Made by a program: the position numbers and the translations under genes
From: a virus
Lineage: Duplodnaviria; Caudoviricetes
Direction: 5' to 3' (one strand)
Virus record (IMG/VR): IMGVR_UViG_3300044850_000102
Span: 1-34,503 of that record
DNA length: 34,503 nucleotides
The notes under the pieces: generated by a model
What the model was told of the DNA's origin: nothing
Seen by the model: only the letters and a program-made list of their open reading frames with translations
Database searches by the model: none
Shown: one piece after another, positions 22,973-29,937 of the stretch
Numbering within the stretch: position 1 is the stretch's first letter
Layout: each line of letters starts with the position of its first letter

Positions 22973-23587
22973 ATGGAAAACCACTCACCAATGCGCATAG
23001 AAAATCATATTCTAAAAACCGAACTTCTCGATATTGAGCAATTGACCCCGCTACAGGGTGGCCTCAAAAAACTGAGCGATGAGAATTTTAATAAGCTTCG
23101 CCAATCTCTTATAAATAAAGGCTTTCAATTCACCGTGCATGTTTGGGAGTCGGGCGGGGTTACCTATATTATCGACGGGCACCAGCGCGTGCACGTCATG
23201 AAACAGATGCGAAAGGGTGGCTGGGAAATCCCGCCTATCACGTGCTCGTTCGTCAAAGCAGCCACCTATCACGAGGCCAAAGAACTAATCCTCTATAGTG
23301 TATCGCAATACGGAAAAGTAGATCAGGAAGGCTGGACCGAGTTCACCATGGGCGAGGATTTTGATTTTTCCAAGTTTGATATTCCATCGTTTACCGTTGA
23401 GATGCCAATTGATTGGGATAGTGATCTCCACAAGAGCCAAGAGGATTTTGATTCGGTTCAATCCAATGTTGATGGAATCACAGCAACCGTAAAAGTGAAG
23501 TGTCCCCAGGAGTTGGCTGGAGATGTCATCTCGGCTATTAAAGGTATGATTGAGGATATGGGCTGGGAGGGTGTGACAGTTGCTTAA
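22973..23587 (+). CDS. ParB/Srx N-terminal domain protein
   Basis: KLRQSL..KGF..VHVW....IIDGHQRV motif; heads the modification operon. Confidence 0.82.
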   Translation: MENHSPMRIENHILKTELLDIEQLTPLQGGLKKLSDENFNKLRQSLINKGFQFTVHVWESGGVTYIIDGHQRVHVMKQMRKGGWEIPPITCSFVKAATYHEAKELILYSVSQYGKVDQEGWTEFTMGEDFDFSKFDIPSFTVEMPIDWDSDLHKSQEDFDSVQSNVDGITATVKVKCPQELAGDVISAIKGMIEDMGWEGVTVA

Positions 23588-24452
23588 TATCCTCATTGCC
23601 TATCCATACTGGACTAACGCAATGGCTGAATATCTTCGACCATTGGACGAAGCTGGGCAGCTCCGTTTCCTTTTGGACTCCGGTGCGTTTACGGCTTGGA
23701 AATCTGCAAATCCGATTAAGATTGATGACTATTGTAGGTTCCTGGAGCAGTTACCTATCATGCCCTGGAGATATTTTGCGCTGGATGTCATTGGCGATCC
23801 ACATGGCACAATGCGCAATTATGAATTGATGCTCAAACGTGGTTTTAAACCGATTCCGATCTTCACACGTGGAGAGAATCCAGATGTTTTGGATGAATAC
23901 TTTAAGACATCAGATGTAGTTGGAATTGGCGGACTCGTTGGAACACCAAGGAACAAAGGCTTTGTTAAGGGACTGTCAAAATTTATTAACGGTCGTCGTG
24001 TCCATTTACTTGGGTTCACAAATAAGTCCTTTCTCAAGGTTTTGAAGCCATATTCCTGTGACAGCTCGTCCATCCAAAGTGCGGCAAGGTACGGACAGGT
24101 TGAACTATTTGATATAAAAAAAGGTACTTGGATAAAGCTTCAGAAGTCTATTTTTTCCTCCAAGCCTCCAAGCGCGGTTATCCAGCTAATAGAGAGCTAC
24201 GATGTAGCACCGATTGATTTGGCTCGAAACGACAATTGGGTCGGCCTTAGGAGCATTGGCCGACGGCTAAGTTTTCGTTCACACGTTCGAGCAAGCCTTG
24301 CCTATGAGAGGATTCTAGGAGTTAAATATTTTCTGGCTTTAAATGCGGTCGACCAGATTGTCCTGATCTTGGATTGTTATGGAAGGGAGTCTTTTTTATA
24401 TGATCGAATGCACAAGGCGAATCCAGTTTTGCGCAGGGCATCGGGTTCTTAA
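23580..24452 (+). CDS. TGT-superfamily DpdA-like DNA-guanine transglycosylase (divergent)
   Basis: LDSGAF, LDVIGD, IGGL, HLLG and CDSSS match the order of TGT catalytic motifs; adjacent to que genes. TTG start with RBS GGGAGG. Confidence 0.75.
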   Translation: MLNILIAYPYWTNAMAEYLRPLDEAGQLRFLLDSGAFTAWKSANPIKIDDYCRFLEQLPIMPWRYFALDVIGDPHGTMRNYELMLKRGFKPIPIFTRGENPDVLDEYFKTSDVVGIGGLVGTPRNKGFVKGLSKFINGRRVHLLGFTNKSFLKVLKPYSCDSSSIQSAARYGQVELFDIKKGTWIKLQKSIFSSKPPSAVIQLIESYDVAPIDLARNDNWVGLRSIGRRLSFRSHVRASLAYERILGVKYFLALNAVDQIVLILDCYGRESFLYDRMHKANPVLRRASGS

Positions 24453-24822
24453 TCACGAATCAAAATGCGCGAATATGCATGGGCATAATTATGTTGCCAT
24501 GTTCTACGCCGTTGCAGATGAGCTTGATGGAATCGGTCGGGTGATTGACTTCTCGGTCCTTAAGGAGAAGCTTGGGGGATGGGTTGACGAGCATTGGGAC
24601 CATACTTCGATCATCTTTGAAAGAGATGTTGAGCTGATTGAGAAGCTATCAGGCGTTAACAAAAAGCCGATCTTCGTGTCGAAGTGGAACCCGACAGCTG
24701 AGAACATGGCGGACTTTTTACTACGCGAGGTCGCTCCATCGGTCCTTGCAGGGACAGGCGTCATGGTTCGTAGGGTACAGCTTTGGGAGACTGAAAATTG
24801 CTTTACGGAGGCCAGCCTATGA
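24400..24822 (+). CDS. queD: 6-carboxy-5,6,7,8-tetrahydropterin synthase
   Basis: FCAGH, C..MHGHNY, VIDFS, WDH, NPTAEN and WETE. Start at 24400 after GGAAGGGAG. Confidence 0.92.
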   Translation: MIECTRRIQFCAGHRVLNHESKCANMHGHNYVAMFYAVADELDGIGRVIDFSVLKEKLGGWVDEHWDHTSIIFERDVELIEKLSGVNKKPIFVSKWNPTAENMADFLLREVAPSVLAGTGVMVRRVQLWETENCFTEASL

Positions 24823-25418
24823 GTGATCCCTTGCTATTCATAAATGACCTGTTCTGGACTATTCAGGGTGAGGGCTCAAACGCCGGAAGGCGCGCTCTTT
24901 TTGTCAGGATGCCGTACTGCAATCTTTCATGTAGCTGGTGTGACACAAATTTTTCGACTCACACGATAATACCAGTGTCATATTTCGTAGAGTTTGCACA
25001 GATGGAACCATCAAGGTTCGCTGTTATTACAGGAGGCGAGCCATTAATGCATCGCCATACCCCTATAGTGGCAAAGGTTCTCAAGGATCTTGGATTCGAA
25101 ATTGCTGTTGAGACGAACGGGACATTTCCGTCAGTAGATGGCATCGACTTTATCACCTGCTCCCCCAAAGCTCAGTCCATGTTCAGGATTGATCCGGCGC
25201 TCTACGACAAGGTTTCGGAGTTCAAGTATGTGGTGGATGATGCCTTCAGCTTCGACACACTGATCAGGCATGACAATGATCCGGAAACCATGCGGCATTC
25301 ACTCTCCCCCGAGTTTACGAATATGGCCAGTAATGTGGAGCGCATCACGACCTATATTCAAAAGAATCCGCGGTGGCGTCTGAATCTTCAAACTCATAAG
25401 TGGATAGGGATTCCCTGA
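24819..25418 (+). CDS. queE: 7-carboxy-7-deazaguanine synthase (radical SAM)
   Basis: [29 protein letters not shown] and LQTHK. ATGA overlap with queD and RBS GGAGG. Confidence 0.93.
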
Positions 25419-25966
25419 TGGAAAATGAAAGCATCATTCGAAGTATGCTGACAGCGATCGGCGAGAACCCAGACCGCGAGGGGCTGCTCGATACTCCCAA
25501 GCGGGTCGTCAAGTCGTGGCGCGAGCTGTTCTCCGGTTACGATCAGAACCCTGCCACGATCTTGGAACGTGACTTTGAGGGCGGCGGGTATGACGAAATG
25601 ATCGTCCTTCGTGATATCGAACTCTATTCCATGTGCGAGCATCACATGCTACCGTTTTATGGTCGTGCACATGTTGCCTATATTCCTGGTGCCCGTGTTG
25701 TCGGACTATCGAAGCTTGCCCGCGTTGTCGAGTGCTTCGCTCGCCGGCTTCAAATTCAAGAAAAGCTTACCCGTCAGATAGCCGATGCGATTAACGAATT
25801 CCTTAACCCAAAAGGCGTCGGAGTTATAATTGAAGCCCAGCACATGTGCATGGTCGCCCGTGGAGTTGGTAAACAAAATTCAGTTATGACAACGAGTGCG
25901 TTGATTGGCAAATTTCGCGATTCTGAAGTACGTGCAGAATTTTTTAATCTAACTGGGAGAAGTTAA
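25418..25966 (+). CDS. folE: GTP cyclohydrolase I
   Basis: [35 protein letters not shown] and HMCMVARGV. Confidence 0.96.
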
Positions 25967-25967
25967 A

Positions 25968-26675
25968 ATGACGAAAGCTCTAGTTGTTCTTAGCGGTGGT
26001 CAGGATAGTGCAACCTGCATGGCATGGGCTGCCACTATTTTTGATGAAATCCATGCGCTCTCGTTTGATTATGGTCAACGGCATAGACGCGAATTGGAAT
26101 CGGCCCAGGCAATTGCGGATATGTTTGGTGCCTCGATGAATATCATCGGGGTTGATGCCCTGCGGGCGAATCCATCAAGCGGATTGACCAGATCCGATAT
26201 CGATGTAAATGAAATCGATTCTGAAACCTCACTCCCCAAGTCTTTCGTGCCTGGCCGTAATCTGATTTTTCTCACATCGGCATCCTCAATCGCCCTATCG
26301 TTGGGAATCCATGATATAGTGACCGGCGTCTGCCAAACAGATTTTTCTGGATATCCGGATTGTAGACGGGAGACGATCGATGCTCTCGAACGCGCAATCA
26401 ATCTTGGGAACGCTGGGCTGGGAGCCGTGAGGATTCATACCCCTCTCATGTATATGACGAAAGCAGAGACGGTTCTGCTGGCCAAACGCCTGAGCCTGGG
26501 CTGGGAAGCCATCGGGAAATCATGGACATGTTATGAGGGTGGAGAAGAGCCTTGCGGAATATGTCCAGCTTGTGTTTTGAGGATTAATGGGTTCAAAGAG
26601 GCTGGCTTGAGCGATCCAGCATTTAGTGATGTTCGTAAACCATTAGAGGGTTTGGCAATTGGAATGCAGTTATGA
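25968..26675 (+). CDS. queC: 7-cyano-7-deazaguanine (preQ0) synthase
   Basis: LSGGQDS, FDYGQRH, VPGRN, YPDCR and TCY......CG.CPAC.LR. Confidence 0.95.
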   Translation: MTKALVVLSGGQDSATCMAWAATIFDEIHALSFDYGQRHRRELESAQAIADMFGASMNIIGVDALRANPSSGLTRSDIDVNEIDSETSLPKSFVPGRNLIFLTSASSIALSLGIHDIVTGVCQTDFSGYPDCRRETIDALERAINLGNAGLGAVRIHTPLMYMTKAETVLLAKRLSLGWEAIGKSWTCYEGGEEPCGICPACVLRINGFKEAGLSDPAFSDVRKPLEGLAIGMQL

Positions 26676-27617: not shown

Positions 27618-28040
27618 TTATTTGTCCGAAATATCTGGGTTACTACTTGAAGCACCAGCCGCTGCGCCAGTACCGGTTCCGAAAGATGCTTCCACGCGAA
27701 CCTTAGTAGATCCATCGGCTTTTTTTTCGTAATCTACCACAATGCGACCTCCTACCCCGACAGACTTGGCAGCCTTGCCGACGATATCGCTTACCGCATC
27801 TGCAATTCCGCCGACCTGACTTGGATCAGCATAGCCTGCTGGTCCATTTCCTGCCTTACGCGGAATGTCGGTCTGGAAAAATGTTTCGCAATTCGATTCG
27901 ATACAAACTTCGAATTCTAAAATATTCGGATCTTTTTCCATAATGGTGCTGCCAATTTTCTCAAAAAGCATTCTGGGCGTGGGATTTGCGAACGCCATTG
28001 ACGGCATTCCCAGCAATAGAACAGCGAAAATGTTTTTCAT
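27618..28040 (-). CDS. Secreted hypothetical protein (140 aa)
   Basis: Sec signal MKNIFAVLLLGMPSMAFA; ATG at 28040 preceded by GGAGGAG. Confidence 0.7.
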   Translation of the reverse strand: MKNIFAVLLLGMPSMAFANPTPRMLFEKIGSTIMEKDPNILEFEVCIESNCETFFQTDIPRKAGNGPAGYADPSQVGGIADAVSDIVGKAAKSVGVGGRIVVDYEKKADGSTKVRVEASFGTGTGAAAGASSSNPDISDK

Positions 28041-28049
28041 CGGCTCCTC

Positions 28050-28125
28050 CAGCGCGGACACTCCAGCCATATCCCGACCCGAGCCGGCGAGGAAATGGAC
28101 GGGATTGGCTGGAGAGGAAGCGCTG
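28050..28125. repeat. Subterminal imperfect inverted repeat of the IscB element
   Basis: Nested pairs CAGCGC/GCGCTG, CTCCAGCCA/TGGCTGGAG and ATCCCG/CGGGAT. Confidence 0.75.
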
Positions 28126-28196
28126 CCAATCTATCTCGCTTAAGGGGTCCAGGGGAATCGGAGATATCCCCTGGTGCCTTTTTCCGGATGTGTTCT

Positions 28197-29483
28197 TCAG
28201 TGCATGTAAGCATAACCGTCTCCTTTATGAATTATGCTGCAGTGTTTATGGCTGATACCTTGTATGACGCCTGATTTTGTTGTGATGTTGAAGTTTCCAG
28301 ACTTTCGCACAGCGACTTTCCCGATATGAGTCCCGCATTTTTTGCCGCCCGGAACTTTAGCTCGTACTATGTCTCCTGTCTTAAAGCCGAAAAAGATCTT
28401 GCCCTGAGTGGCTTCCCCTCTTGGGAAGCCGAATTTGTCCATGAGTTGAACCTGCCTGTCACCGTGTCCAGTTGCCTTGATTTTAAGTGGCTTCAGTGAA
28501 GCGGGAATATGAACTTTACCACCGGTTTCGGATACACAGACGGCGTCTATCCAGTGGGCTTTTTCGAGGCCCTGGCTCTGGCGGTTAAATTTGGTTTGGG
28601 CTCCCGTTCCGGTGCGGGTAGGGAGAATTCTGGACAGATTTTCACATATTTTATAGCGGGTGGCGTTAACGGCAGCGGCATCTTTCAGTGGGGCCTTGAG
28701 CTGATCATGGATCGCTTTAAGAACTTTGGGCTTTGACTTCAAAAAATCCTCTACGGAGCTGTTCCCCTTCTTTTGATTGCAGGGTCTACAAGCCATACAG
28801 AGATTATCCACTCGGTCGCTTCCACCTTTGGATCGGGCTAGAATATGTTCGATTTCAAGTGGTAGCGAATCCTTGCTGCAGTATGCGCAGCGGTAATTCC
28901 ATTTTTGAAGGAGGAATTCCCTAATTTCAAAGCCAAAGAGGGTTCCCCTCTGATATTCAAGGCCGGAAATGTCTTGATTCTGCATTTTTTGCATGTCAAA
29001 TTTAACGCGCTCGACCACGATCTCAGAAGAGAAGGCAAACGAGGAAAGTCGTCTGGCCCAGGTTTGAACGCCAAGGACCCGCGAAACTATACTGGGCGGC
29101 AGCCAGCCCTTTTTTCTTGTTCGATTGTCGAAACGGGCCTGCCTAAAGCCTGTCTTACGTGCTCGCCGCGTTCCCCTTATAGTTCGTCTTTTGTCGAGAG
29201 CACTTTTGATCTGCTGTCCCCGATGCTCGAGCTCAGCCGCCCAAAGAACTTTTCTGCCTCGCTTGCATGCCGCGACCAGGGCTATGCCTGTGGTCTTGCT
29301 GCCAGGATCGAACTTTAATTCGCTTGCCTGGGTATCGCCCTGTTGCCTCTCAGTCAGGCAGATGGTGAACGGAAACTGTCTGATGACTTTGGCCCTGCCA
29401 TTGCCAAGCAATTGTCTTGCCCGTGCTGGATGGCAAGGCATCAGCGGCTTTCTGCTTTTTGTAATGACCAGGACACTTTGCAT
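28197..29483 (-). CDS. iscB: RNA-guided endonuclease IscB (428 aa)
   Basis: PLMP domain, RuvC-I DPGSKTTG, Arg-rich bridge helix, RuvC-II VERVKFD, HNH (CAYC, EHILARSKGGSDRVDNL..AC.PCN) and RuvC-III HWIDA. Confidence 0.95.
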   Translation of the reverse strand: MQSVLVITKSRKPLMPCHPARARQLLGNGRAKVIRQFPFTICLTERQQGDTQASELKFDPGSKTTGIALVAACKRGRKVLWAAELEHRGQQIKSALDKRRTIRGTRRARKTGFRQARFDNRTRKKGWLPPSIVSRVLGVQTWARRLSSFAFSSEIVVERVKFDMQKMQNQDISGLEYQRGTLFGFEIREFLLQKWNYRCAYCSKDSLPLEIEHILARSKGGSDRVDNLCMACRPCNQKKGNSSVEDFLKSKPKVLKAIHDQLKAPLKDAAAVNATRYKICENLSRILPTRTGTGAQTKFNRQSQGLEKAHWIDAVCVSETGGKVHIPASLKPLKIKATGHGDRQVQLMDKFGFPRGEATQGKIFFGFKTGDIVRAKVPGGKKCGTHIGKVAVRKSGNFNITTKSGVIQGISHKHCSIIHKGDGYAYMH

Positions 29484-29802
29484 AACGCATCCAATTTCTC
29501 GGACTTTCCCGCTGGTCAGTCCCGTTAGGGACGAGCTTGGGTTACCCCAAGGTTCTCGGCTTTCGCCGGTAAAGTGTGCCTCGCTCGGACTGATGGGGTT
29601 ATACTCAAAAGCCGTTCTGGACTTTCCCTTATCCTCACTTCGGTCTTTTGACTCAGAGCCTGGAACTGGCAACGCATTCCAGGGTGCCTCCCAAAAATCC
29701 TCTCCCTGTGTCCAGGGGAGCTGGTCAATGAGGGCTTCGGCTTTGTTTCCTCCATCCGAAGCCCCATCCATATCGCGTTAGCGATTGGGTGGGGAGATTG
29801 AC
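29484..29802 (-). ncRNA. Omega (HEARO-type) RNA scaffold; guide expected from the flank at about 29803-29822
   Basis: GTCAAT...ATTGAC 5' stem, TTGACCAG, CACCCTGGAATGC..GCCAGTTCCAGGCTCTG, CGAGGCACACTTTACCGGCGAAAGCCG and several short hairpins directly upstream of iscB. Confidence 0.85.
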
Positions 29803-29937
29803 CGAACTTTCTCCAAAGGAGACCATGACTTTGTTTCTCAAATTCTGGCCCTCATTTCCTCAACACCAAGCTTTTCTCTAAGGATCGTATTTTCCTGAAA
29901 CGCAAGCTCCCAGTTCCGATACCATTTCTCTTTTCCA

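Follow-up and report, generated by a model that had tools for sequence, protein, structure and literature searches.

A transposase-less IS200/IS605 element inserted between the ribosome-binding site and ATG of a phage gene likely keeps that gene translated through its terminal GGAGG

The closest described relatives of the insertion analyzed here are the ISC elements (Kapitonov, Makarova and Koonin 2016, PMC4810608), which have an N|ATGA target, GT...CG termini and ends in common with TnpB elements. Like our element, ISC1-1_MA, ISC2-1_HM and ISC2-1_MS and their IS605B partners are inserted 5′ of ATGA with no target duplication, and the ISC elements resemble it further in their subterminal hairpins, in carrying iscB only and in sharing ends with oppositely oriented TnpB elements. 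The main text of that paper does not contain the words "start codon", "ribosome" or "translation", does not take ATGA as a start and leaves the Shine-Dalgarno (SD) sequence unremarked. In main-text passages of Meers et al. (bioRxiv 10.1101/2023.03.14.532601), the transposase TnpA chooses its target by pairing with a left-end DNA guide, GstIscB of ISGst5 uses the TAM TTCAT and cuts the empty donor joint, and iscB elements share the orientation of upstream genes, since transcription of the guide has to come from outside; downstream start codons and ribosome-binding sites go unmentioned in the same passages ("ribosome binding" and "Shine" each occur 0 times). ISGst5 resembles the element described here in its target, since TTCAT reads ATGAA on the iscB strand, as well as in its flank-derived guide, outside transcription and co-orientation with upstream genes, and differs in that its TAM was measured, whereas ours is putative and taken from the flanking word. 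Insertion between an SD and a start codon is known from IS900 and IS901 of the IS110 family (Doran 1997 and Inglis 2003, as cited in PMC2942039 and PMC8141618), which use another transposase family and in which the host SD is said, in the same sources, to drive the element's own hed ORF; unlike them, our element makes an SD, or a stop/start overlap, available to the host gene, and the likeness is confined to the target position. IStrons, which combine a group I intron with IS605/IS607 (PMC4227781), are IS200/IS605-type elements that are likewise harmless to the host gene, but they are described there as spliced out of RNA, whereas our element is intron-less and any masking would act at translation initiation. 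The N|ATGA target, the TTCAT TAM and the homing logic are already published. A link of IS200/IS605 targets to start codons or terminal SDs was not found in the open-access main texts searched, and is not mentioned in the text available for PMC13565253, PMC13180657 (term search) and PMC4607514. Masking of an insertion at a start codon is apparently an unpublished, partial variant with a precedent in IS900.

The window, a stretch of 34,503 nucleotides from a Caudoviricetes virus, contains one such element, the parts of which are as follows.

29803..29822, minus strand: phage 5′ flank, the predicted omegaRNA guide (position after the mechanism of Meers et al.), including the native SD GGAGA (29814-29810) in a predicted 5-bp hairpin
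28041..29802, minus strand: whole non-autonomous IS200/IS605 (ISC) element, 1762 bp, termini GT...CG, delimited by empty alleles L038 and L036 and by copies elsewhere that diverge at the same ends
29762..29802, plus strand: right end, with a subterminal hairpin (29762-29794; DNA fold z -3.4) and a terminal TTGAC (29798-29802) on the transposase strand
29569..29802, minus strand: omegaRNA scaffold (HEARO, RF02033), E 1.2e-16, model positions 1-211
28197..29483, minus strand: iscB, 428 aa, RRXRR plus HNH, with RuvC residues D59, E158 and D313 and HNH residues H213, N227 and N236 present
28037..28213, minus strand: 58-codon ORF, candidate translational relay, with the SD AAGGAG (28225-28220) 6 nt before its ATG
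28050..28125, plus strand: left-end subterminal hairpin, DNA fold z -3.35, also seen in the RNA fold
28046..28050, minus strand: element-borne SD GGAGG, 5 nt 5′ of the ATG and mostly outside the left-end stem (sequence and RNA fold)
28036..28040, minus strand: target and putative TAM ATGAA, which is the host-gene start codon (TTCAT on the transposase strand), kept in the window and in copies X3, X5, X6, X7 and X19
27618..28040, minus strand: downstream phage gene, 140 aa, intact, 96%, 91% and 77% identical to element-free homologues

On the minus strand, the native GGAGA is followed by a 7-nt spacer (29809-29803) and then by the start of the element, GTCAAT, at 29802, while at the opposite end the GGAGG is followed by a 5-nt spacer and the host-gene ATG at 28040. 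A search with the 140-aa protein found three viral loci that carry the downstream gene (L036, L037 and L038), and the element was absent from all three. In L038 the 5′ flank of the window, with 0 mismatches in 28 nt, is directly joined to ATGAAAAAC, and L036 has the same junction (ATGAAAAAC) behind a partly different flank; the more distant L037, with an SD of its own, is likewise element-free. The empty alleles of L038 and L036 thus define the insert as 28041-29802, 1762 bp, inserted beside its 4-5 nt target without duplication, although the CG shared by both sides permits a formal 2-nt shift. The original prediction had placed the ends and the position between SD and ATG exactly here and had called for a search for the empty allele, and the native SD joined to ATGAA in two related phages now bears out both. 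The 140-aa protein had no Pfam or NCBIfam match, and its description as secreted was judged by eye from the N-terminus. Its gene forms a two-gene cassette with a gene for a trypsin-like protease (PF13365; 26838-28040, minus strand), both with N-termini resembling export signals, and the cassette is retained in the related phages L036-L038 with differing upstream neighbours. Elsewhere in the window, positions 23580-26675 hold a cluster resembling queuosine/7-deazaguanine synthesis genes, which we take, from their translations, to be QueD-, QueE-, FolE- and QueC-like along with a possible transglycosylase; the cluster suggests modified phage DNA, which could also affect cutting by IscB.

Sequence comparison identifies the insert as an ordinary, intact, transposase-less member of a known group, an IS200/IS605 element with omegaRNA and iscB. 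The IscB protein matched PF14239 (E 3.5e-63), an HNH profile (E 1.9e-12) and NCBIfam NF040563 (417 bits, cut-off 175), with its catalytic residues conserved in alignment A2 and the HNH domain inserted in an RRXRR/RuvC protein. The omegaRNA scaffold lies upstream of iscB and begins at the element end, with HEARO model position 1 falling exactly on 29802; its score of 82.7 bits is 0.3 bit below the 83-bit gathering cut-off, so that Rfam gave no match at the gathering threshold and HEARO was visible in E-value mode only. Both ends have subterminal hairpins and lack inverted repeats. A PF01797 search for the Y1 transposase (TnpA) that marks autonomous ISC2Y/IS605 elements found nothing in the contig, which has a completeness of about 50%. 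Rfam gave no group I intron match at the element, as an IStron would require, and IscB is the sole long ORF, with no DEDD transposase and antisense hed ORF of the IS900 (IS110) type. From 29771 to 29484 (minus strand), the omegaRNA region contains no stop in the frame of iscB over 96 codons. Database entries for the 98% and 91% relatives are annotated as 524-aa proteins, and similar 540-aa frames are found in elements of G001 and G002; these extensions through the omegaRNA region probably reflect mis-called starts. Promoter and terminator scans of the region were at chance level (5 vs 3.5 and 5 vs 5.3, respectively), with no terminator found between iscB and the host start.

Copies of the element in other sequencing runs were counted leaving out run X1, which may be the source of the window, and ATGAA adjoins the element in every copy seen (window, X3, X5, X6, X7 and X19), in agreement with the ATGA-type target originally proposed. 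In X3 the same left end (496 nt compared, 2 differences) precedes a frame that reads MKRVAFILGSLF and by eye resembles a signal peptide; in X7 the short frame visible behind the element is open, and in X5 and X6 the contigs end just 3′ of ATGAA. X19 is a non-start site, where the element sits before ATG-AAC-TGA; a contig of this RNA run spans the left end into the flank, and the contigs give neither strand nor level. The L036-type empty phage site is also present in X3 and X9, and in X3 the empty site has a depth of about 104 and the element one of about 10, consistent with recent acquisition from the host. A scan of viral sequences with an 18-nt stretch of the left end gave two matches, both inside genes, which were set aside as chance. 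Among a random sample of 201 genomes of one phylum, IscB was above cut-off only in the centre genome.

The L038 junction is a perfect match to the predicted guide and TAM and should be cut if the enzyme works like GstIscB, and by the same analogy we infer that IscB would cut empty alleles. The L036-type junction has a mismatch 2 nt from the TAM and the predicted guide folds a 5-bp hairpin over the native SD, either of which could weaken cutting. The original prediction was right that the guide derives from the 5′ flank, at the position given in the passages of Meers et al., and named the wrong agent in proposing that the TAM steers insertion: as TnpA picks the target through its left-end DNA guide in that account, the TAM of the nuclease merely matches the target of the transposase.

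Whether such elements tend toward start codons, as had also been predicted, was evaluated on 76 left ends from 132 pattern hits in the three unrelated genomes G001, G002 and G005, comprising exact hits and those one-mismatch hits that resembled left ends; 6 without a second end or target were dropped, leaving 70. Empty sites were rebuilt by script and classified with a simple codon-based gene caller, on which the start calls depend. The element was at or next to a called start in 34 of the 70 copies (13/23 in G001, 6/12 in G002 and 15/35 in G005), compared to 4.5% of 999, 7.3% of 536 and 3.8% of 976 control ATGA words, respectively, and 16 of the 70 were called inside genes. With only non-disruptive sites considered, starts accounted for 13/19, 6/8 and 15/27 copies versus 30%, 29% and 25% of control ATGA (p < 0.01 each). 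A native SD was present in the 5′ flank of 8/23, 6/12 and 13/35 copies versus 12%, 17% and 10% of controls. Frames of at least 60 codons followed 45 copies, 36 of them with a Pfam match. The family profiles start at residue 1 or close to it for RuvA, L15, NagB, XylB, PcrA, TrpA, ProA and HisB (the last initiated by GTG), and no more than about 20 residues in for IF-2 and NuoB. Crowding at start codons, as read from these rebuilt sites, is real and family-wide, and is compatible with targeting at insertion as well as with survival. IscB elements with GTGA targets had little enrichment at starts, with long ORFs behind 3 of 12, and TAA targets exist as well, so the proposal that all TAM variants are start-codon adaptations was rejected.

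The distribution of the terminal SD was determined on left ends collected with a hairpin pattern that contains neither SD nor ATG and that covered about 120 of about 140 and about 120 of about 1400 stretches, with a sister hairpin pattern supplying TAA-target ends as controls and an SD called at 4 nt or more with an aligned spacing of 4-11 nt. Among the matches listed, ATGA was directly behind 193 of 204 unique sites, and an SD of at least 4 nt was present in 62 of 169 distinct ATGA-family ends (about 37%; shuffle mean 16.8, maximum 31) and one of at least 5 nt in 46 of the 169 (shuffle 3.1), with a spacing mode of 6 nt. The TAA-target controls with the same hairpin had an SD in 2/36 (shuffle 2.1). 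An independent set selected by IscB protein comprised 169 loci, with a left end visible in 46 and 42 distinct ends, of which 16 had an SD (shuffle mean 3.6, maximum 11). Mapped on a quick 50-protein IscB tree, the SD requires 14 changes, of which strong branches force at least 8, and clusters no more than in shuffles; being scattered over the tree, it is not the trait of a single clade. By host, again among the matches listed, it was found in 25/36 ends from Actinomycetota, 0/12 from Poribacteria, 0/9 from Chlamydiae/Verrucomicrobia and 0/6 from Archaea. ORFs of at least 70 codons lay behind 52/67 SD-positive and 67/127 SD-negative ends among the matches listed (p 7e-4; GC-adjusted p 0.02), the lineages being non-independent. 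A native SD in the flank did not differ between elements with and without a terminal SD (15/29 vs 14/41, p 0.22), and a native SD together with a long frame was found for 14/29 vs 10/41 (p 0.045). Among the matches listed, the 5′ arm of the left-end stem pairs with 46% of the SD bases on average, and with every SD base in some ends.

The terminal SD is, on this evidence from sequence, a real but partial family trait, neither universal nor required. The prediction that relatives would combine a terminal SD with a flanking ORF start therefore holds in part: the SD is far above shuffles and controls and yet is found in only about 37% of ends, and copies at starts are common in G005 (15/35, including those at rplO and infB), whose ends have neither SD nor overlap. 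Nor is the trait specific to IscB, since 12 of 13 tested ATGA-family elements carry TnpB on the opposite strand and others are gene-less; with ends common to such elements, the terminal SD is a trait of IS200/IS605. Several features of the left ends were recorded alongside. The left-end guide covaries with the flanking word (GGTTTCC/GTATCC with ATGA, GGCTTCC/GGCATCC with GTGA and GTTCCC/GTGTCCC with ATGG; L456-L613), and two near-identical sister IscBs, L550 (ATGG) and L555 (ATGA), are one guide base apart, both with a perfect SD, so that the target seemingly switches faster than the nuclease changes. A TnpB element of enterobacterial type (L040, L050, L069 and L102) has a terminus of GGAGG plus 7 nt at four different sites, with the SD wholly paired in the left-end stem. 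With the pattern used, 123 of the 169 IscB loci had no recognizable left end (L001-L010 and L456-L613 examined), and several phage iscB copies run straight into the next gene, possibly as domesticated forms or with divergent ends.

A second arrangement by which an element can meet a host start was found in G001 (15 full-length copies) and G002 (10 copies), where iscB lacks a stop codon within the element: its frame continues across the left end to a TGA formed with the target, overlapping the host start. Of 9 lineages with an iscB frame extending to the end, 8 use this frame (p 0.001 versus one third, 0.02 versus one half), and the iscB frame reached the element end in 4 of the 42 protein-selected elements. 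A guaranteed stop would be a sufficient reason for the borrowed TGA, and selection may be for a fixed IscB C-terminus only. A proposed avoidance of left-end lengths that close the overlap frame was rejected, as left ends of the TAA control are distributed over the same lengths. The iscB of the window terminates 159 nt short of the target-TGA position, and the 58-codon ORF has its start within the last part of iscB, runs through the left-end hairpin and terminates at the TGA contained in the ATGA target; a relay ORF as a general device was unsupported among relatives (12/17 vs 6/11, p 0.44). TnpB elements were also seen with a back strand that is stop-free across the whole element in a frame ending on the target TGA (L082, L228, L241, L246, L257, L261, L263, L267, L271, L272, L274, L296 and the L043 family), and in L261 and the mini-element L233 this frame begins at the first TTG of the element. 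Most long TnpB back-strand frames lack a start at the first codon of the element, and comparable open back strands are common among ordinary genes of the GC-rich G002 (14 of 36); these frames are an unproven candidate for a selected translational bridge.

The reading we favor, and consider likely, is that the element sits between the host ribosome-binding site and ATG and that its left-end GGAGG keeps the gene translated, with such masking a frequent refinement of the family and not its defining feature. TnpA supplied in trans would insert the element beside TTCAT or TCAT by pairing with the left-end DNA guide, and omegaRNA transcribed from outside the element would direct IscB to cut the empty junction, both as in the published mechanism. 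With ATGA the commonest gene beginning, part of the insertions would fall on start codons, and these would be retained because the coding sequence is left whole and a promoter lies upstream, as the guide RNA needs. Many lineages would then have repeatedly acquired features that restore initiation, namely a terminal SD (about 37% of ends) or an iscB stop on the target TGA; that the SD or overlap does restore translation is probable to the same degree. The same picture could arise as a by-product of survival, in which the choice of ATGA has other causes, selection removes disruptive insertions and the GGAGG is a coincidence, as part of the lower stem or through purine-rich drift, so that genes behind the element use SD-independent initiation or are partly silenced. 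The N|ATGA target was indeed published without a translational reading in the main text of PMC4810608, the SD is missing from most ends (about 63%) and from the G005 start copies at essential genes, about half of the SD bases are stem-paired and the flank-SD contrast is non-significant. We nevertheless regard this explanation as unlikely, because the SD excess over shuffles is 4-fold (4-nt) to 15-fold (5-nt) in two independently chosen sets, the SD peaks at canonical spacing, shows no excess in TAA-target ends that have the same hairpin and appears repeatedly over the tree, and in 35 of 61 SD ends, among the matches listed, under half of the SD bases are stem-paired.

Two further explanations place the cause elsewhere. 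The bias could arise at insertion, with TnpA preferring start-codon ATGA, for example in single-stranded DNA exposed by transcription, which would account for starts making up 34/54 of non-disruptive sites versus 25-30% expected; on the co-orientation of iscB, main-text passages of Meers et al. allow for insertions being "preferentially generated or preferentially retained", and IS900/IS901 are cited, in the sources above, as targeting the SD-start interval. The same excess is, however, expected from the need of omegaRNA for an outside promoter and from harm at promoters within the "intergenic" class, and the copies called inside genes, together with the non-start copy in X19, also speak against a preference of this kind, which we consider improbable. 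That the phage uses the element as a switch or weapon instead of harboring a selfish passenger is hardly credible: IscB and its RNA are intact, and a recognizable left end remains in only 46/169 loci and is lost in many phage iscB loci, but the empty alleles in all three related phages largely refute domestication, near-identical copies occur at unrelated sites in other samples and both transposon ends are intact here.

If masking at the start codon is as frequent as the favored reading holds, it bears on the family at large. It is possible, though we hold this broader view only tentatively, that the ATGA, ATGG and GTGA targets of IS200/IS605 elements are an adaptation for parking at start codons and that the left end is a repeatedly evolved translation-repair module, acting through a terminal SD, a borrowed stop or relay ORFs. 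Such elements would then be intron-like silent parasites of translation initiation, with a splicing-free way for RNA-guided transposons to precede essential genes such as rplO, infB and nuoB, and parking would give a biological reason why the ATG-like TAMs of IscB, and with them the ancestral Cas9 PAM, resemble start codons. A further prediction is that host ribosome-binding sites form part of many natural omegaRNA guides and could thereby favor off-target binding at the starts of other genes, and for annotation, an insertion sequence just 5′ of a gene need not inactivate that gene.
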